A stretch of 32,000 nt of DNA, taken from the NCBI RefSeq assembly GCF_000020025.1, contig NC_010628.1:810001-842000 (forward strand), in the 5' to 3' direction. Each line of letters opens with the position of its first letter. The stretch's first letter is position 1. This DNA comes from Nostoc punctiforme PCC 73102 (GTDB lineage Bacteria; Cyanobacteriota; Cyanobacteriia; Cyanobacteriales; Nostocaceae). This document shows positions 1 through 24,383 of the stretch, piece after piece. The position numbers and the translations under genes were made by a program. The notes under the pieces were generated by a model. That model did no database searches, was not told the DNA's origin, and saw only the letters and a list, made by a program, of their open reading frames with translations.

Positions 1-746
1 GTAATTCCCAAAACAATATCCTGTTGTTGCAGGGTGTCTAGTATGTCGGTACTTTCGTCAATTGCAAACGGTAAGCCTGATTTTGCCAGCAAATCAAGGG
101 AATCACGACACTTACCTTGGCGTGGATGAAACCGGATCAGCAATTTTTTCAAAGGTTTATAGTCAGTTAACACCTTAATTAAGATGTGAAGAATTTCAAT
201 CTCGTTAGCATTGGGTTGAGAAGCAAATAAAATATTTTGTACTACTTCTAGAGTATTTTTTCTAGATTTTTTTCTAGCAACCAACCAAGCAAAATAAGGC
301 TGTCCTACAATGCAAATTCGATTTTTTGGTAATCCATCGGTAAGCATTCCTGTCGCACACACTTCATCTATGGCTGTGATAATATTTGGAAAAATTGCTT
401 CTGCATCAGGATTGTTGAATGGTTGAAAACGCTGACGATAATTTGCCCAATAGTCTATAACAGCAACACTAGGAATACCCTCTTGCCTTGCCCAAAAAAT
501 AGCATCGCGTTCAAACTCATCATTTTGAGATGTTCCTGTTAGCAGAATATCTCCTTTTAATCTCACAAAAAGAATTTGGTGTTCTTCAGAAATTGGCGTA
601 CAAGCAACTGCAAGACGTTGAAATTGACGGATGGCTGGGCCTTTAGCATACGCTTCTACCTCTGTACCTGCTGCCCGCAAGGCTGCAACCGTTGCAGCCA
701 CAGCATTAGCACCGCCTGGATCGTGAGCGATCGCAATAATCTTCAT
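1..746 (-). CDS. Unknown-function protein, N-terminal 248 codons only (gene runs off the left window edge). Possibly a GT-B-like sugar/nonulosonate transferase.
   Basis: It is absent from the ORF track because no stop lies in the window. I translated the minus strand from ATG (746..744) to position 3 without meeting a stop: MKIIAIAHDPGGANAVAATVAALRAAGTEVEAYAKGPAIRQFQRLAVACTPISEEHQILFVRLKGDILLTGTSQNDEFERDAIFWARQEGIPSVAVIDYW...IVGQPYFAWLV...LLIRFHPRQGKCRDSLDLLAKSGLPFAIDESTDILDTLQQQDIVLGIT. Its ATG overlaps the TGA of the upstream DegT gene (tcat at 743-746 = ATGA on the coding strand). The function is a pattern-level guess only. Confidence 0.6.
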   Translation of the reverse strand, partial: MKIIAIAHDPGGANAVAATVAALRAAGTEVEAYAKGPAIRQFQRLAVACTPISEEHQILFVRLKGDILLTGTSQNDEFERDAIFWARQEGIPSVAVIDYWANYRQRFQPFNNPDAEAIFPNIITAIDEVCATGMLTDGLPKNRICIVGQPYFAWLVARKKSRKNTLEVVQNILFASQPNANEIEILHILIKVLTDYKPLKKLLIRFHPRQGKCRDSLDLLAKSGLPFAIDESTDILDTLQQQDIVLGI

Positions 747-2014
747 TTATCTTTTCCTCGACTTAACTCTTCAGCATGAGCCAGGACTTTAGCAACAGAA
801 GCTACGAAACGATCAACTAAGTCAATACCCCCAGGTATTTGGATGAGAGTTGTAGATAAAAGTGTCTCGTTATATGTCTTTTCAGCTATGGGACAGACAC
901 CAGTAGGATGACTGACAATTGTCTTGCCTTCTTGTTGCAGCTTTTGGAAAAGAGGTAGTCTGTATAAAGGACGCACATAACGCCCCGTTAAAGGACATCC
1001 TTCTGCTTGAAGTGCCTCCACAAATCTGTCCCGCGACAATCCAGCTTGTTGTGGATCGATCCAGATGGGATATGTATAGTAAACATGGCGATCGCCACTG
1101 CCAACTTTAGCCGTCCGCAATGCTTTAAACTTAGACAAGCCTTGGTCTAAAGCTTCAGCAATTTTTAGCCGTGGCTGTGTCAATTCTTCCAAACGTTGGA
1201 GTTGAACCTGAGCGATCGCCCCTTGAAGTTCAGTTAAACGGTAATTGTAACCAACAATATCAGCATCTTCATACCAGTTTTCCGCTTCTATTGCGTTCTC
1301 TCCATGATTACGCACCAGTGCTACTCGCCGCGCCAAGTAATCATCATTAGTGACTACAATCCCCCCTTCACCACACTGAATCGTTTTGTGACAATTGAGG
1401 CTGAAAACTCCCAAATGCGCAATTGTCCCCAACCAACGGCCCTGATGCTGACCTCCTGGTGCTTGGGCATTGTCCTCAATTAGAATCAAACCATGTCGAT
1501 CTGCTAATTTACGTAAGCGCACCAGTTGGGCTGGGCCCCCAAACAAATTGACTGCGATAATTGCTTTTGTGCGTGTGCTAATAGCACCTTCAACAGCTTC
1601 TGGATCAATGCAGCAACTAGCCTCCTCATGATCGACAAAAACAGGAGTACCATTTGCCATAACCACTGCTGTTGCCGTTGCTGACATCGTTTGCGGTGGC
1701 ACAATTACCTCATCACCAAAACTAACACCAGCTGCAATCACAGCGGCATGTAAACCACTAGTAGCAGAGTTAACACTCAAAGCGTGACGAACATTAAAGT
1801 AGTTAGCCCATTGTTCTTCTAATGTGCGAACTTGTTTCCCACCCATAAAGTACAGCCCAGCAGCACCGATATAGTCAGATAAAATACCGCTTTTCAATAC
1901 TTGAATCGCGGCCTCTGTCTCCTGAAAACTAGTACTGATATACCTTGGTAATGGCTCTGGAAAAACCTTGGAACCTCCGAGTAAAGCCGGTTTTTCTCTA
2001 GTAATAACCATCAA
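743..2014 (-). CDS. DegT/DnrJ/EryC1/StrS-family PLP-dependent sugar aminotransferase
   Basis: 423 aa ORF. Family hallmarks are SVNSATSGLHAA and the PLP-lysine block FSLNCHKTIQCGEGGIVVTND. It lies 5 nt downstream of the oxidoreductase stop and has an ATGA overlap with the next gene. Confidence 0.85.
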   Translation of the reverse strand: MMVITREKPALLGGSKVFPEPLPRYISTSFQETEAAIQVLKSGILSDYIGAAGLYFMGGKQVRTLEEQWANYFNVRHALSVNSATSGLHAAVIAAGVSFGDEVIVPPQTMSATATAVVMANGTPVFVDHEEASCCIDPEAVEGAISTRTKAIIAVNLFGGPAQLVRLRKLADRHGLILIEDNAQAPGGQHQGRWLGTIAHLGVFSLNCHKTIQCGEGGIVVTNDDYLARRVALVRNHGENAIEAENWYEDADIVGYNYRLTELQGAIAQVQLQRLEELTQPRLKIAEALDQGLSKFKALRTAKVGSGDRHVYYTYPIWIDPQQAGLSRDRFVEALQAEGCPLTGRYVRPLYRLPLFQKLQQEGKTIVSHPTGVCPIAEKTYNETLLSTTLIQIPGGIDLVDRFVASVAKVLAHAEELSRGKDK

Positions 2015-2019
2015 ATTAC

Positions 2020-2991
2020 CTACTTAATTAGAAATTTGTTGTTTCTTGCCATTTCAACAACTTGTAAAGCAAGCACACCATCAGCGCCAGAACAGGTTGG
2101 TTGTCCGCCAATTTTTGCTAATTGCACAGCTTCGGTAACAGCCCCCAAAATGTGGCCTTTTAAGCCAGCTTCACAGATTATTTTTGCTTGGTCTAACTCT
2201 TGAAAGCCTGACCATTGACTAGGTTGAGCTGTCTGCCAAGTGACTTGCCCTCCTCCGGCGCTATACCGCAGCATACCGCCGGTTCCCCAGAGTTCGCCTT
2301 CGCCGATTGAACATCCAGTTCCACGTACTGCAATCAAATATGCAGTTAATCCGCTGTTCCAGGATAGTGCAATTGACTCGGCAGCGTCATCTTGAGCAAC
2401 AGATAATTTTTCCAGACGATATGTACAAGAAACCGATCCGAATAAAGCCAATAACATATCGATCCAATGGGTTCCATTGTGCAATAAACCACCGTTATAG
2501 CGTAAGCAAGCACCAATTGGGGTTCCCAAGCCATCATCTTGGTTCGTTAGATTTTTCAAGGCTTGCAGCATTGGTGTCCAACGACGCGAATAGTTAGTTA
2601 TCAAAATACAGCCCTGTGCAGAGCAAGCAGCTAGCATTATCTCTGCTTCTGCTACATTAACTGCAAGGGGTTTTTCGCACAGGATGACACGCGGTCGCCA
2701 AGCGAGTGCAGCAATAACTCCCTGAGCGTGTAAGTGAGTGGGGCTACATACTGATACTACTTCGAGGTGAAGTCCATCTGGTACATCTTTCAGACTGGAG
2801 TATACCTGTGCCTGGGAAAAACGTTGCAGAAAATTTTTACAAGCCTCTGGATCTGGATCTACTCCTAATACAACTGTTACGTTAGGGATTTGGGCATATC
2901 CTTCAGAATGGCTGAGTGGATCGCCTTGTGGGGAAATGCCAAAGCGATGCCCAATTCTTCCCAAACCAATAATACCGACACACACTTTCAT
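2020..2991 (-). CDS. Gfo/Idh/MocA-family NAD(P)-dependent oxidoreductase
   Basis: 323 aa ORF with an N-terminal Rossmann motif (VGIIGLGRIGHRF) and the family EKP motif (LCEKPLAVNVAEAE). It starts 14 nt after the upstream gene. Confidence 0.8.
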   Translation of the reverse strand: MKVCVGIIGLGRIGHRFGISPQGDPLSHSEGYAQIPNVTVVLGVDPDPEACKNFLQRFSQAQVYSSLKDVPDGLHLEVVSVCSPTHLHAQGVIAALAWRPRVILCEKPLAVNVAEAEIMLAACSAQGCILITNYSRRWTPMLQALKNLTNQDDGLGTPIGACLRYNGGLLHNGTHWIDMLLALFGSVSCTYRLEKLSVAQDDAAESIALSWNSGLTAYLIAVRGTGCSIGEGELWGTGGMLRYSAGGGQVTWQTAQPSQWSGFQELDQAKIICEAGLKGHILGAVTEAVQLAKIGGQPTCSGADGVLALQVVEMARNNKFLIK

Positions 2992-3005
2992 GAGTTTAAT
3001 TTCTC

Positions 3006-3716
3006 TTAGGAGTCAATCCATCCTTGTTGTTGGGCATAGTTAAGAATGTCTACTGTAGTAAATTGTGGATTCTGGGGATAAAGTGTTTCAAAAATGGCTT
3101 TGATGTGATCGTAGTCTTCTTGATAGTCAAGGGTAATACGGAAAAAAGGATTACTTAAGCCTGGAGGAGCAATAATATCCAAGCGACGATATCGCTCTGG
3201 ATGTCGTCGGATGTACCAACCAACATGTTCACCAAAGGGTTTGGTGGAAGCAAAATCAACTGTTTGAGCTAGTGTTTTCCAAGACAACACCATGAGATCC
3301 AGCCCATGAGGATATGAACGTACTTCACAATTAGCAACGTAATCTACATGGGGGTAAGCCGCGAAAAAGGCGCAAATGTGCTGGTCAATCACATAAGGGT
3401 CAATTAGCGGGCAATCTCCGGTTAAAAGGACACTAACTTCTGCTTGATAGTGTCGCCCAGTTTCCACAACTCGTTCTAAGACATTTTCTTCTGAACCACG
3501 AAAGTAAGCAATATTGTGTTTACTGCATAAAGATGCGATTGCTTCATCTTTTTCATTAGTGGTTGTAGCAACTACCACTTCATCTATATAACGAGCGCGA
3601 CGAGCGCGTTCAACCATCAGCAAGAGCATCGGTTTACCCACAGCTTCCTTGAGGACTTTACCAGGAAGGCGTGAAGAACCCATCCGAGCTTCTATAGTAG
3701 CTATAACACGAGTCAT
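3006..3716 (-). CDS. SpsF-type cytidylyltransferase (acylneuraminate cytidylyltransferase superfamily), copy 2
   Basis: 236 aa ORF. N-terminus is IATIEARMGSSRLPGKVLKE, with GDCPLIDP further in. By my manual alignment it is roughly 40-45% identical to the 8187..8924 product over the first ~115 residues. Confidence 0.8.
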   Translation of the reverse strand: MTRVIATIEARMGSSRLPGKVLKEAVGKPMLLLMVERARRARYIDEVVVATTTNEKDEAIASLCSKHNIAYFRGSEENVLERVVETGRHYQAEVSVLLTGDCPLIDPYVIDQHICAFFAAYPHVDYVANCEVRSYPHGLDLMVLSWKTLAQTVDFASTKPFGEHVGWYIRRHPERYRRLDIIAPPGLSNPFFRITLDYQEDYDHIKAIFETLYPQNPQFTTVDILNYAQQQGWIDS

Positions 3717-3787
3717 ATTTTAGTGTTGGTGATAATCTTGGCGTCTAAAAGTTGTAAATTTTGCTGTATTTAAAACCTATAATTTAT

Positions 3788-4468
3788 TTAATTTATATGA
3801 CAATGCAATTGAACAAGAAACTTTTTCAGTTTCGGAATTAAGTTTTCTTTTCTCCTGGTTTTAAGTAAATCTCGTAATGAGCTGCTTAAGATATTTCCAC
3901 CTCTTTTTTTTTCCAGTTCATAAAAATCTTCTCCATCCACAGAGGTAAGTACAACCCCATAAGATTGACCAAATCTGATTCCTGAATTATGTCTATAGCC
4001 TTCTATTCTATAACCAATTAATTCTAATGTATTAATCCATTTCCAAAGTCCTTCATGCTGTCCTGCATAAATTTTAATCAGATTAAGTTTATCGAAGCTG
4101 TGCTTAGTTAATAAAGCCATTGCTTCTAGGGCAGATCCCATAACTGTTTGGACACCCATAACAATACCTATTTCTGCATTTCTATTTATTAAATCAATAT
4201 TCTTTAAGGAAATAACACCTATATGTTGATGATTCTCTCTAGAAATAATGGATAATACAATAGAGTTTGTTTTTTTTATTTCCTGCTCAATTATATGAGC
4301 TTCTTGTTCCCGGTTAATAGGATATACACCATGAATTAAATATCGTGTAATATCTGGATCATTAAACCACTGATGCCAATTACCTTCATAAATATCTTTC
4401 TGAATGTCAGGCAATCTAAGATAGACTATCTCACCTTCAAGGAAGCAGTCATTTTTATTTAAATTCAT
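3788..4468 (-). CDS. GNAT-family N-acetyltransferase (RimJ/RimL-like), candidate PseH-equivalent
   Basis: 226 aa ORF with a GNAT-like core (HIGVISLKNIDLINRNAEIGIVMG ... ALEAMALLTKHSFDKLNLIKIYA). It sits directly downstream of pseI, and the DNA is very AT-rich. The PseH role is inferred from context. Confidence 0.65.
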   Translation of the reverse strand: MNLNKNDCFLEGEIVYLRLPDIQKDIYEGNWHQWFNDPDITRYLIHGVYPINREQEAHIIEQEIKKTNSIVLSIISRENHQHIGVISLKNIDLINRNAEIGIVMGVQTVMGSALEAMALLTKHSFDKLNLIKIYAGQHEGLWKWINTLELIGYRIEGYRHNSGIRFGQSYGVVLTSVDGEDFYELEKKRGGNILSSSLRDLLKTRRKENLIPKLKKFLVQLHCHIN

Positions 4469-4516
4469 AGTTTAATATCTCCTTTTATCAAAAATATTTT
4501 CACTAATAAAAGCTGA

Positions 4517-5569
4517 TTAAATACACAAATTCCAACTTATAGGCGTACCAATTTTGGCATCTTGCTTAATTTTTTTTCCTAGAATAGTGTCGTAATATTT
4601 TGGTGATAAACCCAATCCTGGGCGTACTGCTCTTAGGTTTTCTGATGTGAATATATCCCCTGCTTTCATGTCTTTGGCAATATAGAGCGAGCGCCGAAAA
4701 ACCAGCGACTCTTTTTCAGCCTCAGTTGCTCCATATTTTATGTTGCCCAAAGCTTGCCAAGCTCTTTCACTTTCAATCACCAATTGTTGCATTTCTTCAG
4801 GTTCCATTGAAAAAGCTGAATCAACTCCACCATCAACCCGACGCAGCGTAAAATGTTTCTCAATAAATGTGGCTCCTAGTGCAACACTGACAACAGCAAC
4901 TCCAATTCCCATAGTATGATCTGATAACCCTACCTGGACATTAAACAAATCATGCAGATGGGGAATTGTTAACAAGTTACTATTTTCTGGTGTAGCAGGA
5001 TAGGTACTGGTACATTTAAGTAATATTAAGTCCTGACATCCAGCTTCTCTCGCTGTTATGACTGTTTCATCTAGTTCTGCTACAGTAGCCATACCAGTAG
5101 AAATAATCATTGGTTTACGAGTGCTGGCAACTTTGCGAATCAGAGGGAAATCAGTATTTTCAAAAGAAGCAATTTTATAAAAAGGTACTTCTAAAGATTC
5201 CAGAAAATCTACAGCACTAGCATCAAAGGGAGTACTAAAACCGATAATTCCTAGTTCTTTGCATCGGTCAAATATTGGTTTGTGCCATTCCCAAGGTGTA
5301 TAAGCTTGTTGATATAGTTGATATAGAGAATTACCATGCCATAAACTATCAGGATTATTAATATAAAATTCACCCTCATTTATATCCAACGTCATAGTAT
5401 CTGCTGTGTAAGTCTGGATTTTAAGTGCATTTACTCCAGCTTTAGCAGCAGCTTCAACAATTTCTAAAGCATGCTCTAAAGATTGGTTATGATTGCCAGA
5501 CATTTCGGCAACAATAAAAGGGGGATGGTTTTGACCAATTTGTATTCCGGCAATATTAATTTCTTGCAT
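4517..5569 (-). CDS. pseI: Pseudaminic acid synthase (NeuB/SpsE family nonulosonate synthase)
   Basis: 350 aa ORF. PFIVAEMSGNHNQSLEHALEIVEAAAKAGVNALKIQTYTADT, LILLKCTSTYPA, VGLSDHT and a C-terminal SAF-like tail (SLYIAKDMKAGDIFTSENLRAVRPGLGLSPKYY) align along their length with my recollection of Campylobacter PseI. Confidence 0.85.
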   Translation of the reverse strand: MQEINIAGIQIGQNHPPFIVAEMSGNHNQSLEHALEIVEAAAKAGVNALKIQTYTADTMTLDINEGEFYINNPDSLWHGNSLYQLYQQAYTPWEWHKPIFDRCKELGIIGFSTPFDASAVDFLESLEVPFYKIASFENTDFPLIRKVASTRKPMIISTGMATVAELDETVITAREAGCQDLILLKCTSTYPATPENSNLLTIPHLHDLFNVQVGLSDHTMGIGVAVVSVALGATFIEKHFTLRRVDGGVDSAFSMEPEEMQQLVIESERAWQALGNIKYGATEAEKESLVFRRSLYIAKDMKAGDIFTSENLRAVRPGLGLSPKYYDTILGKKIKQDAKIGTPISWNLCI

Positions 5570-5621
5570 AAATTATCACACCTGAAAAATATTTTATTAG
5601 CTTTTTATTAGAATTAAATAT

Positions 5622-6338
5622 TTATATATCTTTTAATTTATTAGGAATAATCAGTGAACGTGTAGCTTCTAACCCAATATTCATGAGCGTATCTAAAATA
5701 GAAAGATGCGAAACAAAGATTTTACCTCGTTGTGAGTAGCAGGGATGCTCCCATATTTGATAGTTTAACTTAATATCTTCCTCAATAAACAGATGCTTTT
5801 CTTCTTCAATGTAAACCTTAGAACCCATAGGACTGTAATAGTAGTCAGCATCAAGCTGTTGGCATAAATTCACAAGCATTTCTGTTCTTCTACCTTGTGG
5901 ATTTAAGTCTGATGCTTTAACAAAATTTGGCGATAGACCTAGTAAATCTGCAAAAAGTTTGATAAGAGAAATATTCAGATCGACAAGATACTCATATTCA
6001 TAGTTGATAAATTCCTGTATAAATGGAAAGATTGTATGGAAGTAAACCGCAGAACCTAGACACGTTTGAATAGTACCCAGATGCTTTCTACGCCATACAG
6101 ACGGGTTATTTAAAATCTGAATTTTAGATAGAGGTGTATCTAGAGGATGAGCTTTCACAGGAACAGTAAGCCAGATTAGTTGATCATCATTACCTTTGAG
6201 GCGATTACGATTATGCCAAGATTGTTTAACACACTGTACGTTATCTAGAAAGACAAAAACATCAGATTTAGCAATTAGTTCAAAATACCCCAACCAAGGT
6301 AGATAAGTTGGCTGGCTAATAACTACAGTCCTTGACAT
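5622..6338 (-). CDS. WbqC-like family protein (function unknown, found in polysaccharide clusters)
   Basis: 238 aa ORF. The N-terminus VVISQPTYLPWLGYFELIAKSDVFVFLDNVQ is the characteristic opening of the WbqC-like family. Confidence 0.75.
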   Translation of the reverse strand: MSRTVVISQPTYLPWLGYFELIAKSDVFVFLDNVQCVKQSWHNRNRLKGNDDQLIWLTVPVKAHPLDTPLSKIQILNNPSVWRRKHLGTIQTCLGSAVYFHTIFPFIQEFINYEYEYLVDLNISLIKLFADLLGLSPNFVKASDLNPQGRRTEMLVNLCQQLDADYYYSPMGSKVYIEEEKHLFIEEDIKLNYQIWEHPCYSQRGKIFVSHLSILDTLMNIGLEATRSLIIPNKLKDI

Positions 6339-6433
6339 TTGCTCAGATCCTTTGCTGGTTATATTATATTGTGATTAGTAGGCTTTCTTTATAAAACTTA
6401 AGTTTGATTATTTCATTAATCTAATTATTATGA

Positions 6434-7096
6434 TTACATTTTTTTTCGCGGCTGGATTTTTGCATTGTAAACATAAACTGTAAATTCAAAAGGAACGGTT
6501 TCTGGTTTGATTAAATAATCATGCCTCAGTGTAACACAGGGGGAAAGCTCCTCTTTACAGAAGTGGAATACTTGATCTGGATTAACATAGAAAAGCCCAT
6601 CATTAAAGTAGTCAACATATGTAGAAAGTGCATTAAAAGCTAAAACACAGCGTGTATGAGAAAATAAAGTTTTTAATAAGGCTGTCATTATTCCCCAGTT
6701 ATCGCTAAGACGGTTATTGAATACACCATTTATCAGAATATAGTCGAAATCTTCAGGTATACCTTCCGATAAAACATCACGTTGCTCAAACTTATATTTA
6801 GGAAATTTATTTTGAGCAAGCTTAATCATTCCTTCTGACACATCATAGCCAATATACTCGCCTACAAATTCTAATTCTTTTTGTAAAAACGTCAGTAAAT
6901 GTCCTGTGCCACAACCAAAATCAAGAATTTTTTTTGAAGATAAATCACCAGACTGAATAAGAATTTCCATACGACGCTCTTGGGTTTTTCTGTTTGCCCA
7001 TTGTACTGCATGAGGAGTATCACCATGCTGTTGAAACAAGTTTGAATAATGTTGTTTTATAAATAATATGTCTTCTTGGAAATGATGAGATTTCAT
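6434..7096 (-). CDS. Class I SAM-dependent methyltransferase
   Basis: 220 aa ORF with SAM-binding motif I (KILDFGCGTGHLL), followed by an acidic post-I residue (GYDVSEGM). Confidence 0.8.
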   Translation of the reverse strand: MKSHHFQEDILFIKQHYSNLFQQHGDTPHAVQWANRKTQERRMEILIQSGDLSSKKILDFGCGTGHLLTFLQKELEFVGEYIGYDVSEGMIKLAQNKFPKYKFEQRDVLSEGIPEDFDYILINGVFNNRLSDNWGIMTALLKTLFSHTRCVLAFNALSTYVDYFNDGLFYVNPDQVFHFCKEELSPCVTLRHDYLIKPETVPFEFTVYVYNAKIQPRKKM

Positions 7097-7134
7097 AATT
7101 ATTAAATGTAAGAAAATTACTAAATTTTAGAGAA

Positions 7135-8169
7135 TTACATAGAATGCAGAATTTGATTTAATACTCTTCTAGACCCTTGACCATCAACTAAGTTTTGACA
7201 TAATCGAGCCATCTCAGTCCGTTCTTTAGTTGCTAACATTAATTTTTTCAAAGCATTTGCTATTACAATAGGAGCAATATCTTTTCCTTCTCCCAAGTTA
7301 TATATTAGCCTCATTTCACCTAATTTTTTAGCATTAGATGCTTGATTATCTGCCAAAATTAGAATTAGGCTGGGTAAACCCATAAAAGCTAATTCCCAAA
7401 TAGTAGAACCACTAGCAGAGATGGCTATATCAGACCAAGCCATTAGATTGGGCATATTTTGTACATTTCTGTGAAAATAGATAGGAAACTGTAAATGCTG
7501 ACTAGCTACTTGTAATTTTTCATAGTGAGGATTGCTTCCACCTACTACGACTAATACTTCTAAATTACTTAACTCTAGTAGTTTTAAAGCATTAATAACC
7601 TTCAGAGTAAGGTTATTTAGGTCGCTACCACCAAGAGTTACTAGTAACTTTTTCACTATCAGAGGATGTGTTTTCTGCTCTCTTTGGTATTGAGAAAACT
7701 CCCGCCTCAGAAGAGCGTAATTTATACCCAGTAGAAGTTTAGTATAAGGTTCTCGCTGCATATATAAATTCTCATGAGCATAAATATCTTGATTTAACAC
7801 TACATCTGCATAGTAGTATTCTGCGTGCCCATAATCATCAATGAATAAAAGTTTTAGGTCAGATTCCTTGATGATTTCTTGATACTTAGCACCGAAATTG
7901 TAACCATCCACCACAACCCAATTTGCATTAAACTGGCGTGCGAGTTTTGCTGTTTCTTTGGCATCTTCAGCACTTCCAATTTGAATCGGCAGGTGGATAA
8001 CTTCCATTCCTTCTGCGTTTAACCGAGTTTTCAAATCTGGTGCTTCGGTCGCCATCACAAAAACTACCTGGCCACCTGCATCTTGCCAAGCCTGCGCTAA
8101 AGCTAGACAACGCATTACATGACCTGTACCGATTTGTGTTGATGCATCTACTCGGATAAATAGCTTCAT
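7135..8169 (-). CDS. pseG: UDP-2,4-diacetamido-2,4,6-trideoxy-beta-L-altropyranose hydrolase (PseG/SpsG type)
   Basis: 344 aa ORF. The N-terminus IRVDASTQIGTGHVMRCLALAQAW is the typical PseG signature, with a GT-B-like C-terminal half (GGSD...ISASGSTIWELAFMGLPS). Confidence 0.85.
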   Translation of the reverse strand: MKLFIRVDASTQIGTGHVMRCLALAQAWQDAGGQVVFVMATEAPDLKTRLNAEGMEVIHLPIQIGSAEDAKETAKLARQFNANWVVVDGYNFGAKYQEIIKESDLKLLFIDDYGHAEYYYADVVLNQDIYAHENLYMQREPYTKLLLGINYALLRREFSQYQREQKTHPLIVKKLLVTLGGSDLNNLTLKVINALKLLELSNLEVLVVVGGSNPHYEKLQVASQHLQFPIYFHRNVQNMPNLMAWSDIAISASGSTIWELAFMGLPSLILILADNQASNAKKLGEMRLIYNLGEGKDIAPIVIANALKKLMLATKERTEMARLCQNLVDGQGSRRVLNQILHSM

Positions 8170-8186
8170 TTTTGATAAATTAATAG

Positions 8187-8920
8187 TTATGCAGCATATT
8201 TCTTTTGTTCTACATGTGCGTTAATTAGTGACCAATCAGGATACTCTCTGAACAAATCTAAACAATCCTCAAGAGTAAATTTTGGAATTTCAGGATAAAG
8301 CGTTTCAATAATTCTTTTGATAAGTTCAAAATCATCTGCTGTGTCCACTGTCCAACGATGTGAACTTTGATTTTCTGAATAAACTACCTGAGCTAATCTA
8401 TAACGTTCAGGATGCATATAAATAAATGGAGTAACATGTTCTCGGTCAGGTTGTGCGATTGCTTCTACAAATGCTTGATGTAATGCTAGAAATGAAAAAA
8501 CCTCAGTATCCATCCCTCGTGGGTAGGTTCTCTCTAAAGAATTAGAAACATAATCACATTCATGTCTATAATCGAGAAAAAATTGAATTACCTTGTTAAT
8601 CACCAGTGGATCAATAAGTGGACAATCGGAGGTTATCCGAACCACTACATCTGCTTGATGTTCTTTGGCAGCTCCATAGTATCTGGTTAACACATCTTCT
8701 TCAGAGCCTAAAAAATATGGTATTGAAAGGCGATCGCAAAGTTCAATGATTGGCAAATCTGTACTATTGATGGTAGTAGCAATTACAATTTCATCAGCCA
8801 ACTTGACTCGCTTTAATCTCTCAATCTGATATTCTAATAAAGGCTTATCCAATACCTTTTTGAGTACTTTTCCAGGAAGGCGAGTTGAAGTCATTCTTGC
8901 CTGAACAATAATTACAGTTT

Positions 8921-8924
<4 letters not shown>
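8187..8924 (-). CDS. SpsF-type cytidylyltransferase, copy 1 (candidate CMP-pseudaminic acid synthetase)
   Basis: 245 aa ORF with IIVQARMTSTRLPGKVLKK and SDCPLIDP. Its ATG overlaps the pseC stop (tcat at 8921-8924 = ATGA). The PseF role is inferred from its position between pseC and pseG. Confidence 0.8.
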
Positions 8925-11567
<2,643 letters not shown>

Positions 11568-12471
11568 ACTTGCTGTGGTAAATACTGAGGTATTAGCAAG
11601 CCTCCCGTTTTGAGGGTACCCATCTGCTCAACAGAAACTAACATCTTGGCTAAAAATTTTTTACACAAACTTTAAAAGCTGACTCTGAAGATGAGGGAAT
11701 TTTATGGTAAGCTCATGCTGTACAAACAATTTTGCTATGCGTAGTTTACCGCCGTAGGCATCGCTCCTATTGCTTCCAAGCAAAAACCTCTCCTACACCT
11801 AAACAAAGCCCAACCCTCCAGGTCTTATTCTTTAGGCGGAGAATTAAAATTATATAAATATTTGCGATAATTCTGCCTAATGCCAGATGTTTGCGATATG
11901 TTAAATAACATTTAAATAAATAGAAACAGAGGACATTTCTACTAAATTGCAAATTCCGCTTGTCAGGCAAAAATTTTCAACCTAGCCCGTGTCACAGTGG
12001 GTTGTTCAACAAGCAAACATATTTTTTAGAATTTTCCCAGTCCTCCTCAGTCTCGCTACTTAGCGCAACTTCCAGAGGGACTAATTATTTTGCTAGGTGT
12101 TCACAACAGATATCTGACAAAAGGTACTGTTGCACTCTCGTGCTTAAAGGCTAGAAGTTAAGGGGAAAAATAACACGGGAAAAGGTTAAAGGGGAAACAG
12201 AAGCATCCTTTATCTTTTAACCCTTACCCTAAACTTTTGTCTGGTTTCTGCAACAAGTTTAAGGACTACTTGGTGGAATTAGAGTTTTGTGGTGGTAATT
12301 ACCGTACAAAACCGAATTTACCAGTAATCTAGTAGAGTTTGTTATGGTATAGTTAAAAAGTTAAGACTAGCTTTACCAAAATTACACCACTCTACGACCC
12401 GGCAACAATTGCAGAATGGGAAGCAGTTTTAATCAAGTATTTACCAACAAAATCTGAATTCAATCGAGGTT

Positions 12472-12690
12472 ATGACTCAGCAAGTGATTCACCCGATGGT
12501 GAAATTGCAGCGCAACGTGCAATCACTCATAGAATCGAATATTATCAAGCCAAGTGATAGCATCTGGAAAATCGCTTTGCTCTATGGTAATGAATGGCAG
12601 CACTGGAAACAGGAACTGCTAGACTTTGGCTTTAGTATGCAAGACCCAGTTAGTGAACTACTAGCTGTAGAAACTTGGGATGAAGAATAG
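12472..12690 (+). CDS. Small acidic hypothetical protein (72 aa)
   Basis: ATG preceded by GAGG (aatcgaggttATG). No recognisable motif, and it is the only ORF in a long non-coding stretch. Confidence 0.4.
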   Translation: MTQQVIHPMVKLQRNVQSLIESNIIKPSDSIWKIALLYGNEWQHWKQELLDFGFSMQDPVSELLAVETWDEE

Positions 12691-12798
12691 GCAATAGGCA
12701 ATAAGCAATAGGGGGTAGGAATTTTTAATATTCACCACTCCCCATTACCCCTTATTCCGAGAGGGGACCCCACCTTCCCTATTCCCCATTTCTAGTCC
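12691..12798. repeat. STRR-like heptamer repeat tract
   Basis: The units read gcaatag/gcaataa/gcaatag, then ccccatt/acccctt/attccga and ttcccta/ttcccca. The tract fills the whole gap between two convergent stop codons (12690 and 12799). Confidence 0.7.
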
Positions 12799-14073
12799 CT
12801 AAACTTTACAAGCAGCTAAGGCCGCAGCTAATTCCTTTGCAGTTTGGTAGCGATCGCGTGGCAATGGTTCTGTAACGCGATCGATCGCATCTCTTAATTG
12901 GGAACTGATGGTGGGAACTTTTGCCACATCAAACCTGAAGTTACGCCCCCTTTGGCGGTAATACTTGAACGGGTTTTCGCCTGTGAGCAGAAAAATCAGC
13001 GTTGGTCCAATTGCATACAAGTCAGATTGAGTCAAAGGTTGTCCTCGTTCTTGTTCAGGAGCGCAATAACCTTCTGCACCAATCCGGGTACCGGGCGCTG
13101 TGCCAATTTCCTTAACTGCGCCAAAATCAAGTATTACTATGCGATTTAGCGAACTTCGCACCATTAAGTTGGCGGGTTTAATATCGCGGTGAATTAGTGG
13201 AGGTTCTTGGCTATGAAGATATTCTAAGATATCGCAGGTTTGGATCATCCAAGCGATCGCTTGGCTTGGCGTAACTGGCCCAGTTGTATAGACACGTTTC
13301 TCTAAATCTTGTCCGTGGATTAATTCCATTGCCAAGTATTTTTTTCCGCCTTCGACAAAGAAGTCGTAATACTTGGGTATTCCCGGATGGTTAAGGGATT
13401 TGAGAGTATGCGCCTCCCGCTCAAATAATTCTTGAGCTTTGGCAATTTTTGCCATATCAGCATTCATTTGCTTCAACACCAGCAGTTGCGGGATACTCCC
13501 AATCTGACCAGCCCCATCCCAAGCGAGATAAGTAGTACCCATACCTCCTTGTCCGAGAGTTCGCAACACCTGATAATGGCGAATTTTCTGTTGCACTGAG
13601 AGAGGTTGACCGCAGTGGATGCAAAACAGATTGTTCGGGGAGTTACCTTCATGCGTACAAGTGTATTGGCCTTGGGCTGAATAGACTGTTGCAACGACGT
13701 TTTCTTCTGTTGCTTGTATTTGTTGTGGCGATCGCAAACCAGTTTCCAGTACTGTTACCTCCTGAATTTGGAATTGCAGTATTGGGCCTCCTTGTGCTAG
13801 TTGCAAAAGGGAATTATCTGGTAACGGACTCTGAATCACAAGGACACCGTTCAGGAAAGTACCATTTGTACCCTGACTAATTAGCCGCCAACCACTGCCA
13901 TTGTCAGCAGAATCGACGTGTCTCAGTTCTAAATGATGCCGCGAAACTAAACTATCAGTTAAAACAACGTGATTATCTGTAGCTCGACCAATCCGAATTA
14001 TGGAAGAGTTCTCAAAGCACCACTGCTGGAGGGGCGTTTTCTGTTGCGGTTCTAAGAGAGTCAGACTAACCAC
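12799..14073 (-). CDS. FHA-domain Ser/Thr protein kinase with a zinc-ribbon-like linker
   Basis: 424 aa ORF with a GTG start (cac at 14071-14073). The FHA core is IIRIGRATDNHVVLTDSLVSRHHLEL...GTNGTFLNG and the linker is CTHEGNSPNNLFCIHCGQPL. Kinase motifs are LGQGGMGTTYLA, VLK, HRDIKPANL, DFGAVK and YCAPEQ. Confidence 0.9.
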   Translation of the reverse strand: MVSLTLLEPQQKTPLQQWCFENSSIIRIGRATDNHVVLTDSLVSRHHLELRHVDSADNGSGWRLISQGTNGTFLNGVLVIQSPLPDNSLLQLAQGGPILQFQIQEVTVLETGLRSPQQIQATEENVVATVYSAQGQYTCTHEGNSPNNLFCIHCGQPLSVQQKIRHYQVLRTLGQGGMGTTYLAWDGAGQIGSIPQLLVLKQMNADMAKIAKAQELFEREAHTLKSLNHPGIPKYYDFFVEGGKKYLAMELIHGQDLEKRVYTTGPVTPSQAIAWMIQTCDILEYLHSQEPPLIHRDIKPANLMVRSSLNRIVILDFGAVKEIGTAPGTRIGAEGYCAPEQERGQPLTQSDLYAIGPTLIFLLTGENPFKYYRQRGRNFRFDVAKVPTISSQLRDAIDRVTEPLPRDRYQTAKELAAALAACKV

Positions 14074-14127: not shown

Positions 14128-16122
14128 TTAACTTTCCAAATTTGGGCGTACTTTTGCCCGAATAAGTATACCAGTAATGTTGTCGTGACCATTGTATTGG
14201 TTTCCTAAATCAATTAATTTTGTAACACCTTGTTCTAAGTTAGCGCCCGAACTAAGTAAGGGTTCTAAATGAGTCTGCCAATGGGTTTCTAGTAAATCAT
14301 TATCTGATAGACCGTCCGATGCCAAAAGCAGAAGAGTATCTTCATTAATCTCAAAAAAGCCTACATCAGGATTAATCGAGTTTTCATCACGAGGTCCTAA
14401 AGCTTGGGTGAGTTGGTAGGCATCCGGGCGGGCGTAAGCTATGCTTGCTTCTACTCCTCGGGTAATTTCCCGTTGGCCAACTTCATGATCTACTGTGACT
14501 TGTTCTAATCCCCCCTTACGCGTCAAGCGATAGAGACGGCTATCTCCCACATGAGCAACTGCTGCTTGAGTATCTTGAATTAAGAGCATTACTAGAGTTG
14601 TACCCATACGCCCTACTCCAGAACGGGCATCTTGTTGATTGAGCTTGTAAATCGCCTCATTAGCTAAATACACTGCCTCACGAATGCTATCTTCTGTTGG
14701 CAATTGATTGGCAATCCAGTGTTCTTGAAAGTATTGCCGTAGGGTGTTAACTGCTAACTCACTGGCTATCTCGCCGCCAGCATGTCCACCCATACCATCG
14801 CAGAGAATATACAAACCGTGCCCTTCTAGAATTCGACTTTTAGGCAACTCCAACTTTTGAATTTTGGTTTCAATACCAAAGTAGTCTTCATTATGATGAC
14901 GTTGACGACCTACATCTGTGCGTCCTGCATCTTCCAAGCTACTTAACTGCATCGCCAGCACAACAGTTGGCATATCATCAATTTTGCTAATGATATCTTC
15001 TGGTTCGTCTGATTGCGGCATAGTCGGCACAGTAGTATTGTTCTCCTTTATTGGGGGCAAAGTTGCGGTTCCTAGTGCTTCCAGTTCAATAGAGATTTCC
15101 TCCAAACGCGATCGCAATTGTGCGATTGTGTGAATCTTACCTACATCTAAATCTCCCAACATCTGTACTACAGAGCCAAATTGAGTGCGTTGAGACTGCC
15201 TAAATAGTGCTTGCCAAACTCGCCCCAAAGCTTGAATGGTTAACGGCTCCTCTGGAATAGCAGATGTTTGGGCTTCGGCATCTTCTGACGACTTGCTGAC
15301 GGGCAGAGAACTTGATGATTCCACATACAATCTTTGTAGCGCCAGCGTTTGGTCTTCATCCAATCGCAAATTTGATAAATCTAAAAGGCTTTGACGACAA
15401 TTTACTGGTTCCAACAATGCCCAAAGTTGGGTCATTTGATAACACCAGTGCAAAATTTTTAACGAACTTGTTGTCTCTTCTTGCCATAAGTCAAGTAAAG
15501 GCTGCCAATTTGAGCGGTCTTCAATTATTACTACCTGCATATCCCCCTGCTGCCATGCATCGTGAATCAGTGGTATCTCGCGCTGACTTTGAGAGTGTAA
15601 GGCAATATAAGGTTTCGCAAGGTGAGGAATTCCACTTGCATCTAATGATGGCGTTAGTAAATCTGATTGTTGACTTGCTAGTATTGCATCAATTGGTGAT
15701 ATTTGATACGGTTGGCAGTCTAGAACTCTCGCACCTGTAACAGCAATAGTAGCAGTTTCACTTTGGGTAGGTAGCGCATCTAACAATTGATAGCGCTCTT
15801 GGGAGTCTAAATAAGAGCCTAATGCAATCTGAGAACTAAGGGATAAAGGAGATGACGAGGATATTGCTTCTTCATTTTCCTCTAATCCCACATCTCCCTC
15901 ATCTATCTTTACTCCCAAAGCTTCCCCAATCGTTTCTTTAGCAATAATTGCCCAAAACACTGTTCCACATTCCGTGCCACAGTTGTGACAAAGTAGTGCA
16001 TTTACAGGTACATCTTCGGCGCTGCATTCAGGACAAACTTTGTGGGTCAGGGATGTGCCACAGCTTTGACAGAATTTGTTGCTTTTGGGGTTTTCAAATT
16101 TACACTGAGGGCAAATCAGCAT
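14128..16122 (-). CDS. Multidomain PP2C (PPM-family) Ser/Thr phosphatase: double zinc ribbon, degenerate kinase-like region, coiled coil, PP2C
   Basis: 664 aa ORF. The N-terminus has CPQCKFENPKSNKFCQSCG and CPECSAEDVPVNALLCHNCG. The C-terminus carries PP2C motifs (RQRHHNEDYF, LYILCDGMGGHAGGEIAS, VAHVGDSRLY, LLLASDGLSDN, GHDNITGILI). It lies 54 bp upstream of, and co-directional with, the FHA kinase gene. Confidence 0.9.
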   Translation of the reverse strand: MLICPQCKFENPKSNKFCQSCGTSLTHKVCPECSAEDVPVNALLCHNCGTECGTVFWAIIAKETIGEALGVKIDEGDVGLEENEEAISSSSPLSLSSQIALGSYLDSQERYQLLDALPTQSETATIAVTGARVLDCQPYQISPIDAILASQQSDLLTPSLDASGIPHLAKPYIALHSQSQREIPLIHDAWQQGDMQVVIIEDRSNWQPLLDLWQEETTSSLKILHWCYQMTQLWALLEPVNCRQSLLDLSNLRLDEDQTLALQRLYVESSSSLPVSKSSEDAEAQTSAIPEEPLTIQALGRVWQALFRQSQRTQFGSVVQMLGDLDVGKIHTIAQLRSRLEEISIELEALGTATLPPIKENNTTVPTMPQSDEPEDIISKIDDMPTVVLAMQLSSLEDAGRTDVGRQRHHNEDYFGIETKIQKLELPKSRILEGHGLYILCDGMGGHAGGEIASELAVNTLRQYFQEHWIANQLPTEDSIREAVYLANEAIYKLNQQDARSGVGRMGTTLVMLLIQDTQAAVAHVGDSRLYRLTRKGGLEQVTVDHEVGQREITRGVEASIAYARPDAYQLTQALGPRDENSINPDVGFFEINEDTLLLLASDGLSDNDLLETHWQTHLEPLLSSGANLEQGVTKLIDLGNQYNGHDNITGILIRAKVRPNLES

Positions 16123-21295: not shown

Positions 21296-22513
21296 ATGAA
21301 AGCTAACGTCATCAATCTACCAAACTCTACACCCATTTTTGAAAACCACCTTTCGACCGAAGAATTTTCAGACAGCAGCGAAACCTTGATTGAATTGCTG
21401 TGTCAAGAAATGCAAGCACAAGTGAAAGCAGCACCCAGGTGTGTAGAAGCTTTAGCAAACCGCATAGCCGTAGAAGTAGAACGCATTTGCGATAAAAGCT
21501 CGCGCATCCAAACATCTGGGCAAATCAAATCCTGGCAGATTACGTTGGGAAGGCATCGGATGCAAAAGTGCTTACGTTACTACCAACTAGGTTCCAAACA
21601 AGGGCGGGTGGAATTACATAGTAATTTGGGTGCTATGGTTTACCGCCATGTAACTTTATCTGGCTCTGAGTTGGGCTTTGATGCTCGTTACAGCCTAATT
21701 GAAGATTTTTTACAAGCATTTTATATCGAAGCTATCAAAGCTTTCCGCAGAGAAAACGAACTACCTCACGATCACACACCGCGTACTCAGCTGCAATTAG
21801 CTGAATATATGGCGTTTACAGAACAGTACGCCAAACGCCGCATCAATTTACCTGGTGGTGCAAATCAGCAATTGATTATCCTGCGGGCCCAAGGTTTTGC
21901 TCGTCGTCAGCCACAAGAGACTACCGTGGATATTGAAATGGCGGTGGAGTCTGCTAAGGGTGAAGAAGCAGAATCTTACCAGCGTAACTCGGCGGTGCAA
22001 CAGTTGCGATCGCAGATGATTGCCCAAACTAATTTCGATCCATCTGAAGAGTCAGAACGCGATCGCGTCATCACTGAATTGATGAAATATCTGGAGTCTC
22101 AAGGTCAATCTGATTGTATGAACTACCTCAGCTTGAAGCTTCAAGACCTCTCAGCCCCAGAAATTGACCAAATTCTTGGTTTAACCAGCCGTCAGCGCGA
22201 TTATCTCCAACAACGCTTTAAATACCACGTAGAAAAGTTTGCCAAACAACACCATTGGCAATTGGTACATCAATGGTTAGGTGCGGGTTTAGAGCAAAAG
22301 TTGGGTTTATCTTCCCAACAGTGGGAAATCTTTGTGAATCAACTTACAGAACAACAACAGCAAATATTACAGTTGAAAACTGCAAGGCAAACTGACCAAG
22401 CGATCGCAAAAACTATCAAATGCACCCCCAAACAGTTACAAAAGCGCTGGACTCAACTATTAGAACTAGCATGGTCTATCCGCAACGGTCATACTGAAGC
22501 ACAAACAGGTTGA
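21296..22513 (+). CDS. HetZ-related protein (putative DNA-binding regulator family of heterocystous/filamentous cyanobacteria)
   Basis: The track ORF starts at TTG 21245. I prefer ATG 21296 (MKANVINLPN...). Blocks LRYYQLGSKQGRVELHSNLGAMVYRH, IEDFLQAFYIEAIKAFRRENEL, LAEYMAFTEQYAKRRI, QQLIILRAQGF and LGLTSRQRDYLQQRFKYH match my recollection of Anabaena HetZ. No patU5/patU3-like neighbours are present. Confidence 0.7.
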   Translation: MKANVINLPNSTPIFENHLSTEEFSDSSETLIELLCQEMQAQVKAAPRCVEALANRIAVEVERICDKSSRIQTSGQIKSWQITLGRHRMQKCLRYYQLGSKQGRVELHSNLGAMVYRHVTLSGSELGFDARYSLIEDFLQAFYIEAIKAFRRENELPHDHTPRTQLQLAEYMAFTEQYAKRRINLPGGANQQLIILRAQGFARRQPQETTVDIEMAVESAKGEEAESYQRNSAVQQLRSQMIAQTNFDPSEESERDRVITELMKYLESQGQSDCMNYLSLKLQDLSAPEIDQILGLTSRQRDYLQQRFKYHVEKFAKQHHWQLVHQWLGAGLEQKLGLSSQQWEIFVNQLTEQQQQILQLKTARQTDQAIAKTIKCTPKQLQKRWTQLLELAWSIRNGHTEAQTG

Positions 22514-22912
22514 AGCTAAGGTGAAATAACTAAAAGACATTACTGAAGCTTATAACTGGGACGAGGAGCGCGAATTTAGCTTATACACCAAGTATAAAAT
22601 TCCATTAATTAGTAGCGAATTTCTTGCGTGCCTCTGCGCTTCCTTCTGCACCCCTATGTGTTTAAATTTCACCCTCAATTTGCCAGGAGTTTCCACAAAT
22701 AACTCTTATCTGAATTACTAACTCGTTCCTCATCCAAATTATTAATACATTTGTATTTATTTAGTACAAAAATACCAATAATTTCCGAATTTTTACCCAT
22801 TAATCCAACCTTGTTTACGTCAGAATAAAAAATTCATATTAAGAAACTGACCCTTTTTTACTGCTTCTGTGAAATCCTATAATTAGTAGGACTTTTGGCA
22901 GAGGGATTTAGG

Positions 22913-23389
22913 ATGGCTCTGACTCAAGGCGGACGGGCAAATAAGTCGGGGAATATTTTAGAAGGAAATGTTGAAGCAATCTTAAATGGACATAATTATT
23001 TCCAAGTAGGGAACTATGTCCCAAAAGAATTTATACTAAATGCTGCTTTATTACCAAAGCGCTATGGAAAAGAAGTTTATATTGGAACTGGGATTTATCA
23101 TACCGATTTGAAGGTTGATTTTTATGTTGTTGGCTCACCTGCAATGCCATCTGGTTTAATTTTCGAGTGCAAATGGCAAGAAAGCCCCGGTTCTGTCGAT
23201 GAAAAGTTTCCTTACTTGAATATGAACATTCAGCACTATTACCCTGCACCAACTATTGTCATTTTAGGCGGTGAAGGTATGCGAGAAGGCGCAAGCAAAT
23301 GGCTAAAAGCAAGAGTTAATGATAACCATAATTTATTAGCAGTTTATAGCTTAGACAGATTTATTGCCTGGGCAAATAAAAATCTTTAA
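22913..23389 (+). CDS. Small PD-(D/E)XK-type nuclease candidate (putative type II restriction endonuclease)
   Basis: The track ORF starts at TTG 22895. ATG 22913 is preceded by gagggatttagg. A candidate catalytic motif is HTDLKVDFYVVG...GLIFECKWQ (D ... E-x-K). The 3' end overlaps the convergent Dam-family methyltransferase by 29 bp. The DNA is AT-rich and HIP1-free. Confidence 0.55.
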   Translation: MALTQGGRANKSGNILEGNVEAILNGHNYFQVGNYVPKEFILNAALLPKRYGKEVYIGTGIYHTDLKVDFYVVGSPAMPSGLIFECKWQESPGSVDEKFPYLNMNIQHYYPAPTIVILGGEGMREGASKWLKARVNDNHNLLAVYSLDRFIAWANKNL

Positions 23390-24218: not shown

Positions 24219-24383
24219 TTACTTGCGATTTAACTGAAAATAATCGTGACTAAATAAAGCCAATATAACCGACGAGGCATATTTTATATTAGCTGGCTAA
24301 TTTTCCGGCTGCATAGATTACAATTGAGTTGATAAAGCATATCAAAACAAACGTAAGTATATAACAAGGCAGTTTAGATTCAG

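Follow-up and report, generated by a model that had tools for sequence, protein, structure and literature searches.

What is the function of a cytidylyltransferase, an oxidoreductase, an aminotransferase and a fourth protein of no recognised family when all four are encoded beside the genes for pseudaminic acid (Pse)? The question is raised by the first 3716 nucleotides (nt) of a 32,000-nt stretch of the Nostoc punctiforme PCC 73102 genome (NC_010628.1, positions 810,001-842,000 of the forward strand), called the window here. The four genes, named CytB, Gfo, DegT2 and Unk in the order of transcription, form a cassette (window 1-3716), and a complete set of Pse genes lies upstream of it (4517-11073, together with a gene for a GNAT acetyltransferase). 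Our tentative answer, which we consider a serious possibility though short of probable, is that the cassette is one copy of a conserved and portable tailoring module for nonulosonates (NulOs), similar to the Ela and Ptm systems, that aminates a nonulosonate linked to cytidine monophosphate (CMP).

Four genes and their products

The four genes lie on the minus strand and are tightly packed, as a reading made from the sequence alone had claimed. CytB (3006-3716, 236 amino acids, aa) is separated by 14 nt (2992-3005) from Gfo (2020-2991, 323 aa). The gap between Gfo and DegT2 (743-2014) is 5 nt if DegT2 starts at the TTG at 2014 (423 aa), and 8 nt if it starts at the ATG at 2011, the start used in public gene calls (422 aa). 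DegT2 and Unk (1-746) overlap by the 4 nt ATGA (743-746). The window edge cuts Unk after its first 248 codons; the full-length protein of 325 aa was taken from the same contig in the public assembly (L001:10867-11844). The cassette is richer in GC than the block from the GNAT gene to pseG (0.439 vs 0.343), as the same reading had noticed, but the unusual member of the pair is the AT-rich pse block, because the GC content of the cassette is close to that of the remaining window (0.425). The segment from pseB to CytA, a second cytidylyltransferase gene at the canonical pseF position, has a GC content of 0.381. The contrast between cassette and pse block is also found in a related Nostoc locus (L008). 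A scan of window 1-12800 for promoters and terminators gave counts equal to those in shuffled sequence and was uninformative.

CytB belongs to the CTP_transf_3 family (PF02348, 92 bits, cut-off 22.6), and its nearest solved relative is the cytidylyltransferase 6oew (E 2.8e-32). It is 44% identical to its paralogue CytA. Both fall far below the PseF equivalog model TIGR03584 (33 bits for CytB and 28 bits for CytA, cut-off 205.7), and by their sequences both are classed as SpsF-like. SpsF is genetically needed for the use of legionaminic acid (Leg) in Bacillus subtilis (PMC7439481).

Gfo is a member of the Gfo/Idh/MocA family (PF01408, 70.5 bits), and residues E106-K107-P108, H175 and D178 are invariant in an alignment of 38 sequences of its subfamily. 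Its AlphaFold2 (AF2) model (pLDDT 96) confirms the fold (TM 0.73-0.80) and is about equally like many sugar and inositol dehydrogenases, including WlbA, KijD10, GenD2 and YjhC. The best sequence match in the PDB is 3ezy. WlbA (3q2k) scores 28 bits (E 1.2e-5) and 17 other structures of the family score higher, so a specific sequence relationship of Gfo to WlbA and WbpB, the 3-dehydrogenases of uridine diphosphate (UDP)-linked N-acetylglucosaminuronate (UDP-GlcNAcA), was not found.

DegT2 belongs to the DegT/DnrJ/EryC1/StrS family (PF01041, 293 bits, cut-off 19.8). The context of the lysine that forms the Schiff base with pyridoxal phosphate, FSLNCHKTIQCGEGG, is readable in the sequence and matches the lysine context of the PseC encoded in the window. 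The scores of DegT2 lie below the equivalog cut-offs of PseC (TIGR03588, 223 vs 423.5 bits) and LegC (TIGR04181, 193 vs 420 bits), and DegT2 and the window PseC are 26% identical. Among solved structures DegT2 is roughly equidistant from ArnB (180 bits), perosamine synthase (173), KdnA (167) and BtrR (161), and farther from WbpE (127), PseC (118) and PglE. A second PseC or LegC orthologue was rejected on these three grounds: the scores below cut-off, the low identity and the ranking in the PDB.

The window product of Unk matches no Pfam or NCBIfam model. A structure model was made on P0001, a protein 95% identical to Unk; it is of high confidence (AF2, pLDDT 92.5) and has a GT-B fold, and its best Foldseek matches are 2-epimerases of UDP-N-acetylglucosamine (UDP-GlcNAc; TM 0.67-0.74). 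The family profile matches UDP-2,3-diacetamido-2,3-dideoxyglucuronate 2-epimerase (E 1.5e-7) and also archaeal UDP-GlcNAc 2-epimerase and CapG (range E 1.5e-7 to 1e-5); the match to solved 2-epimerases (E 1.5e-7 to 2.5e-7) spans residues 108-240. With NeuC and LegG (Epimerase_2, PF02350) Unk shares the GT-B fold, an HP(R/K) motif at the aligned position of the 2-epimerase histidine motif, and a C-terminal nucleotide motif, S..EA..G.P. It differs from them in having no Pfam match, in that the acidic catalytic residues (Asp/Glu) of the 2-epimerases are not evidently conserved, and in an invariant HDPGGANA loop that is the family's own. The invariant residues are D9, G11, A13 and N14, all within this loop, and G71, T72, D98, R106, F107, G148, S176 and H207. 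By sequence profile and model, Unk is a divergent GT-B member of the UDP-GlcNAc 2-epimerase superfamily. Its role may be to bind a nucleotide-activated intermediate, or else to feed the pathway as a hydrolase or epimerase of sugar nucleotides. It may also be a transferase, as the sequence-only reading had suggested for this edge gene, but fold and profile place it nearest to UDP-sugar 2-epimerases and not to glycosyltransferases.

Two other relationships of Unk were considered. The comparison with a LegG by hhalign is weak (E 2.7e-4), and with PseG (TIGR03590) hhalign gave a probability of 0.7% and BLASTP no significant match; Unk as a paralogue of PseG was therefore rejected, the similarity being limited to the nucleotide-binding motif. 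Weak precomputed matches and NCBI names connect some Unk homologues, and only some, to the GT38 polysialyltransferases (PF07388). Of the GT38 motifs, HP is present in Unk and D/E-D/E-G is absent, a conserved D127-E/D having no Gly after it. The family is large: an exhaustive profile search found 9,459 representatives at E <= 1e-3 and at least 1,574 at E <= 1e-30 (clusters at 50% identity), with Pfam matches that are marginal at best.

Two 546-aa fusion proteins, P0040 (L004:10001-11641) and P0271, combine a GNAT at the N-terminus with a domain of the Unk family. The nonulosonate cluster of this fusion type also holds a PseG-like gene, radical-SAM enzymes, WbqC and Maf. The fusions hint at a hydrolase or epimerase that acts on a sugar nucleotide after N-acetylation, and a hint of the same role comes from L032 and L044, in which Unk is the only GT-B candidate. 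A lone Unk-family gene of 37% identity with the HDPGGANA loop was seen on a high-GC contig (L053:9983-11062), beside an open reading frame of 947 aa; glycan genes were not found within 10 kb on either side of it.

The module in other nonulosonate clusters

Loci with the module were collected by genome and metagenome scans and by exact look-ups. About 60 loci in at least 10 lineages were found: Nostoc, Calothrix, Gastranaerophilales, Akkermansia, Muribaculaceae, Desulfovibrionaceae, Campylobacter, Holosporaceae, Rhodospirillales, Magnetovibrio, Saccharibacteria, Termititenax, and metagenomes of termite gut and sediment. That the cassette travels with pse genes, which the sequence-only reading had proposed to check in other cyanobacteria, holds there and far outside them. 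The arrangement is not a matter of chance, since it is kept in these loci across many phyla. In the literature that could be searched, no earlier description of the cassette turned up.

Gfo lies within 2.5 kb of Unk in 51 of 53 loci and DegT2 within the same distance in 36 of 39; a cytidylyltransferase (Cyt) gene is found within 4 kb in 37 of 43. Among the 36 loci with at least 8 kb of upstream sequence, 30 have a NeuB/PseI synthase and 24 have PseB or LegB. The gene order is Gfo-DegT2-Unk in Nostoc, L006, L032 and L044, and Gfo-Unk-DegT2 in most other loci, usually with overlapping reading frames. In L028 and L029, Cyt-Gfo-Unk-DegT2 form a separate operon away from the other pse genes. Two Campylobacter loci (L030, L058) have the triad with neither Cyt nor NulO neighbours. 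Distant versions (L063-L067) keep Cyt, Gfo (23-33% identity) and DegT2 (40-52%) together, and all except L067 have an Unk homologue. The genes downstream are variable: a GNAT and a WbuX-type N-acetyl-sugar amidotransferase, or a formyltransferase. Relatives in Nostoc have a methyltransferase and a FemAB-like acyltransferase of 328 aa upstream of CytB; the FemAB-like gene is absent from the window.

Nearly all of the loci are NulO clusters, of Pse, Leg or reductase type. The window, L006 and L035 are canonical Pse clusters with PseG. Six Pse clusters without PseG (L023, L024, L031, L039, L040, L048) have an AP_endonuc_2 TIM-barrel gene in the pseG slot. In five clusters (L027, L032, L033, L044, L054) PseC is missing; their synthase is divergent, they encode an RmlD-like reductase, and their PseB and PseF are true equivalogs. 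L038 is a complete Leg-type cluster, with PtmE-like, LegB, LegC, LegH, LegG and LegI-like genes. The module is not specific to Pse, for it also occurs in the Leg-type and PseC-less clusters. Two of the loci, L006 and L044, are flagellar loci with Maf and hold only NulO genes, Maf and the module.

Some features of these clusters stand apart from the module. The TIM-barrel protein of the pseG slot is xylose-isomerase-like (PF01261, about 255 aa) and is encoded between pseC and pseH in L023, L024, L031, L039, L040, L048 and L051; it could be an unrecognised substitute for the UDP-sugar hydrolase, or an isomerase. The synthase of the five PseC-less clusters fits neither the NeuB nor the PseI cut-off, and these clusters would predict a 7-hydroxy, fusaminic-acid-like backbone.

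The module does not follow the backbone. L027 (PseC-less) and L048 (with PseC and PseI) are 82% identical in DegT2, 71% in Gfo, 76% in Unk and 73% in Cyt, and 29% identical in their synthases. Type-I cassettes carry CytB orthologues at 66-81% identity irrespective of the type of synthase; between the window and L044, for example, CytB is 69% identical and the synthases are 29% identical. In type-II cassettes, where GNATs of the window type directly follow DegT2, the Cyt is a PseF equivalog (TIGR03584, 302 bits), so that two non-orthologous Cyt types, SpsF-like and PseF equivalog, fill the same slot. On sequence, the module proteins and the adjacent Cyt cluster by type of cassette and not by type of backbone. 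Because Cyt co-varies with the module and not with the synthase, it belongs to the inherited unit; because the co-variation is independent of the backbone, the site of the reaction must be common to different backbones. The window, L035, L036, L040 and L044 have two cytidylyltransferases, and most loci have a single one.

Similar gene sets are found elsewhere. A trio of aldo-keto reductase, Cyt and Aminotran_3 in one nonulosonate cluster (L004:3791-6828) is not homologous to the cassette, and another nonulosonate cluster has a trio of Gfo, Cyt and Aminotran_3 (L067:2170-5234). The theme of oxidoreductase, Cyt and aminotransferase appears to have arisen more than once. A metagenomic cluster (L064) combines canonical pseBCF(G-H)I with a divergent module of DegT2, Cyt, Gfo, Unk, GNAT, amidotransferase and amidase. 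With a third cytidylyltransferase and, in addition, a second synthase that is Leg/Neu-like, it would be an unusually rich case for elucidation of the pathway.

Models for the reaction of the module

Every pair of a Gfo/Idh/MocA dehydrogenase and a DegT aminotransferase known to us converts a hydroxyl through a ketone to an amine (WbpB/E, GnnA/B, NtdC/A, GenD2/S2). Oxidation followed by transamination, proposed for the pair from sequence alone, is supported as its best reading. The 4-keto sugar that PseC or LegC uses already comes from PseB or LegB, so Gfo and DegT2 must act elsewhere than at C4 of the hexose. The hexose itself has a single free position, C3, whose hydroxyl becomes the ring oxygen of the nonulosonate pyranose. 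A NulO product therefore requires the pair to work on the sugar of nine carbons, and amination at hexose C3 before condensation was rejected for such a product. A CMP-activated substrate is indicated by the constant Cyt partner and by the non-homologous trios of L004 and L067. A CMP-linked nonulosonate, one of the substrates that the sequence-only reading had named, is the most plausible substrate, given the recurring sets of Cyt, oxidoreductase and aminotransferase in NulO clusters and the precedent of ElaABC (PMC13656337).

ElaABC is a system of Acinetobacter baumannii KL49, supported by crystal structures, docking and deletion phenotypes. ElaB, a Cyt, makes CMP-Leg5,7Ac2; ElaA, a Gfo/Idh/MocA protein of 323 aa (nearest entry in the PDB: 3EZY), would by the published proposal oxidise this product at C8; and ElaC, a short-chain dehydrogenase/reductase (SDR), reduces the ketone from the opposite face, which epimerises C8 (PMC13656337). 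In Leg clusters, PtmA, LegF and PtmF form a trio composed in the same way (gene order PtmA-LegF-PtmF in PMC4481668). The window likewise has a Cyt gene adjoining a Gfo/Idh/MocA gene inside a NulO cluster, and its Gfo agrees with the published description of ElaA in length, nearest PDB entry and adjoining Cyt. The cassette does not belong to the ElaABC or PtmA-LegF-PtmF type: it has DegT2 in place of an SDR, which would give an amine instead of an epimeric alcohol, it has a fourth, epimerase-like protein, and its context in the window is Pse whereas that of ElaABC is Leg.

In the model that we propose, the upstream genes would make pseudaminic acid, as their equivalog-level matches indicate, and CytB or CytA, by family, would convert it to CMP-Pse. 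By analogy with ElaA, Gfo would then turn one secondary hydroxyl of this CMP-sugar into a ketone. DegT2, replacing the SDR reductase (ElaC or PtmA), would transaminate the ketone to an amine. The new amine would be N-acylated, in the window by the GNAT, and in relatives by a GNAT and an N-acetyl-sugar amidotransferase, by a formyltransferase, or by the FemAB-like acyltransferase together with the methyltransferase. The predicted product is a CMP-activated 5,7,X-triamino nonulosonate. By analogy, C8 is favoured as the site of amination because of the ElaA precedent, the existence of a natural 8-amino Pse-like sugar and the stability of a methyl-ketone intermediate. To our knowledge, Tenacibaculum maritimum is the source of the sole natural nonulosonate described with a third amino group. 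The sequence-only reading was not aware of such chemistry, but 8-amino-3,5,7,8,9-pentadeoxy-manno-nonulosonic acid has been described in the O-antigen of Flexibacter/Tenacibaculum maritimum (PMC3210612; PMC4052302); the genes for it are not known (PMC9796276).

A different position, C4 of the nonulosonate ring, fits the independence from the backbone better than C8, and corresponds topologically to C3 of UDP-sugars. The configuration at C4 does not differ between Pse, Leg and neuraminic acid (Neu), and the distance of C4 from the variable C7-C9 chain would explain the 70-80% identity of the module proteins across backbones. Unk would in this case represent a new class of CMP-sugar enzyme, for the elimination and re-addition of CMP around a labile 4-keto intermediate. 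The extreme product could be 2,3-dehydro-4-amino(amidino) nonulosonates, like synthetic sialidase inhibitors. We know of no report of C4 amination of a nonulosonate in a natural glycan, and consider amination at C4 very improbable.

Several points weigh against the proposed amination of a CMP-nonulosonate. All of its steps are inference. It has no necessary step for Unk, whose linkage is as tight as that of DegT2; the solved proteins nearest to Unk use UDP-sugars as substrates, and the GNAT-Unk fusions suggest an order like that from PseH to PseG, on a UDP-sugar. Pairs of Gfo and DegT of known function make 3-amino sugars on UDP-, dTDP- and phospho-sugars. The 82% identity of DegT2 between PseC-type and PseC-less clusters fits C8 poorly, as C8 is beside the variable C7. 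The second Cyt of the window would be superfluous if CMP-Pse itself were the substrate. A homologue of Unk was not found in Tenacibaculum by a motif scan of one genome per species, a weak result that depends on strain and motif.

These points are met in different ways by other models. The least improbable of these, though still unlikely in our view, is a side pathway like that of the Wbp proteins, in which the module would make a separate UDP-2,3-diamino sugar from UDP-GlcNAc for the same glycan as Pse. Gfo would oxidise C3 (as WbpB, WlbA or GnnA), DegT2 would aminate it (as WbpE or GnnB), the GNAT would acetylate (as WbpD), Unk would be the 2-epimerase (as WbpI), and the WbuX-type amidotransferase of relatives would form the acetamidino group (as WbpG). 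Each part of the module then has a counterpart, and Unk in particular is well explained, its best solved relatives being UDP-2,3-diacetamido-2,3-dideoxyglucuronate 2-epimerases (E 1.5e-7), with which Foldseek concurs. The families of the WbpB/E/D/I(/G) and WlbA-D pathways to UDP-ManNAc3NAc(Am)A (Gfo, DegT, N-acetyltransferase, Epimerase_2 type) and the logic of oxidation, transamination and acylation are shared; Gfo has WlbA as one of its close neighbours in structure; Gfo homologues bear the automatic JGI name 'UDP-N-acetyl-2-amino-2-deoxyglucuronate dehydrogenase'; and in L038 the module has a gene for a UDP-sugar 6-dehydrogenase nearby. If the substrate were a common precursor, conservation across NulO backbones would be explained too. 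The model leaves Cyt unexplained, though Cyt is in an operon with the triad in L028 and L029 and co-evolves with it, and it leaves unexplained the near-confinement of the module to NulO clusters. Unlike the Wbp pathway, the window has no UDP-GlcNAc 6-dehydrogenase, and its acetyltransferase is a GNAT and not a left-handed beta-helix protein. The cassette proteins show no special affinity to WbpB or WbpE; many other members of their families are at least as near to DegT2 and Gfo as are WbpE (127 bits) and WlbA (28 bits), and the acidic residues expected of a 2-epimerase are not evident in Unk. The flagellar locus L044 has Maf and no extra glycosyltransferase for a second sugar.

If instead the cassette duplicates canonical steps, it could be a parallel precursor branch to a second nonulosonate isomer or N-acyl variant, with DegT2 as an alternative aminotransferase, Unk as a PseG/LegG-like hydrolase or hydrolysing 2-epimerase, CytB activating the second product, and Gfo supplying or inverting a keto or hydroxyl centre. 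The window offers one-to-one pairs for this (PseC/DegT2, PseG/Unk, CytA/CytB), and the module does share the DegT, GT-B and CTP_transf_3 families with the PseB-C-H-G-I-F pathway, in the same operon-like array. Unk is the sole candidate for a GT-B hydrolase in L032 and L044, which lack PseG and LegG, and DegT2 is the sole aminotransferase in the PseC-less L027, L032, L033 and L044; the GNAT-Unk fusions resemble PseG-PseH fusions, and L064 has an extra synthase and extra cytidylyltransferases. In contrast to the canonical pathway, the module has Gfo, which is constant and would be redundant where PseB or LegB already gives the 4-keto sugar; DegT2 and CytB fail the PseC and PseF cut-offs; and the resemblance of Unk to PseG ends at the nucleotide motif. 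The sole free position of the hexose, C3, becomes the ring oxygen; most clusters, the window included, have a single bona fide PseI (503 bits in the window), unlikely to accept a D-series sugar; Unk also occurs alongside PseG or LegG (window, L006, L035, L038); and in most PseG-less clusters it is the AP_endonuc_2 protein that takes the pseG slot. We regard such a branch as distinctly unlikely. A model that makes better use of the second Cyt reverses the order of amination and activation. In Shewanella, KdnB and KdnA convert 3-deoxy-D-manno-oct-2-ulosonic acid (Kdo) to Kdo8N, by oxidation and then transamination (DegT family) of a hydroxyl of the terminal chain, before CMP activation. Gfo and DegT2 could act in the same way on free pseudaminic acid, with CytB as a dedicated synthetase for the aminated sugar and CytA activating plain Pse. 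This is the best fit for two Cyts in the window, and it also covers L035, L036, L040 and L044. KdnA (structure 5k8b) is one of the solved proteins nearest to DegT2 (167 bits), and a similar score (161 bits) goes to BtrR-type enzymes, whose substrates carry no nucleotide. The model is nevertheless quite improbable: most loci have a single Cyt, which in type-II cassettes is a standard PseF equivalog; ElaABC, the precedent nearest in architecture, would by the published proposal work on a CMP-sugar (PMC13656337); and Unk again finds no explanation. The Kdn system also differs from the module: KdnB is of the metal-dependent alcohol-dehydrogenase type, the substrate is a free sugar of eight carbons, and there is no epimerase-like partner.

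Two more routes were set aside. For a cyclitol substrate, which the sequence-only reading had also entertained, no support was found: an inosamine pathway (IolG-like and BtrR-like) has a resemblance only at the level of families, there are no inositol genes, and the NulO context would be unexplained. A route from UDP-GlcNAc without a dehydratase, by oxidation of C4 to a 9-hydroxy-Leg-like sugar, gives every cassette gene a role; it was put aside because most clusters, including that of the window, have only a bona fide PseI, and because PseB or LegB is present in 24 of the 36 loci.

Surrounding genes and implications

All genes of the Pse set are on the minus strand, and their order in the window is that on L001. 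Next to the cassette, the GNAT gene (3788-4468, 226 aa) encodes a protein with a PF13302 match of 44 bits that is weakly PseH-like (29.6 bits against an equivalog cut-off of 93); it is the sole N-acetyltransferase of the cluster and may serve the module too. PseI (4517-5569) and PseG (7135-8169) are equivalogs above cut-off (503 and 255 bits). Between them, Pfam identifies a WbqC-like gene (5622-6338) and a methyltransferase (6434-7096). Upstream of pseG lie CytA (8187-8924), pseC (8921-10126) and pseB (10084-11073), the last two identified by Pfam.

The Pse cluster is a mosaic when compared with other Nostoc loci. In the central block (3717-8169), identity is 67-70% for PseG and about 35% for the methyltransferase; for the genes on either side (PseB, PseC, CytA, CytB, Gfo and DegT2) it is 79-97%. 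The Nostoc relatives have a PseG-PseH fusion, a methyltransferase and a FemAB-like gene where the window has WbqC and a free GNAT instead. These differences in sequence suggest that the central block was replaced through recombination. The pair of WbqC and S-adenosylmethionine-dependent methyltransferase (5622-7096) is, we presume, like Cj1324 and Cj1325/6 of Campylobacter, which are linked to N-methyl-acetimidoyl nonulosonates.

Beyond position 1 of the window, on the strand of the cassette, Unk is followed by a gene for a 2,289-aa protein with GT4, GT1, TPR and GT41-type domains (L001:12022-18891), and beyond that by a convergent gene for a TPR/GT41 protein. The two proteins are candidate nonulosonate transferases of this non-flagellated cyanobacterium. 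Elsewhere in the window, a gene for an FHA-Ser/Thr kinase (12799-14073) adjoins one for a zinc-ribbon PP2C phosphatase (14128-16122), and a D12-class DNA adenine methyltransferase gene (23361-24218) lies inside an AT-rich stretch (22500-24300, GC about 0.35).

Nonulosonic acids decorate flagella, pili, capsules and lipopolysaccharide, and shape recognition by the immune system and by phages. Unk stands for a large GT-B family that has no Pfam model (the 1,574 or more clusters counted above at E <= 1e-30). The hypotheses on the module are directly testable with CMP-Pse, which one report describes as now obtainable enzymatically (PMC7910423). If the module is an amination system, it would provide candidate genes for the chemistry of a third amino group on nonulosonates. 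The keto intermediate of the Ela/Ptm type would then be a branch point, from which either reduction or transamination may follow, and triamino nonulosonates would be predicted in many uncultured bacteria of the gut, of termites and of lichens.

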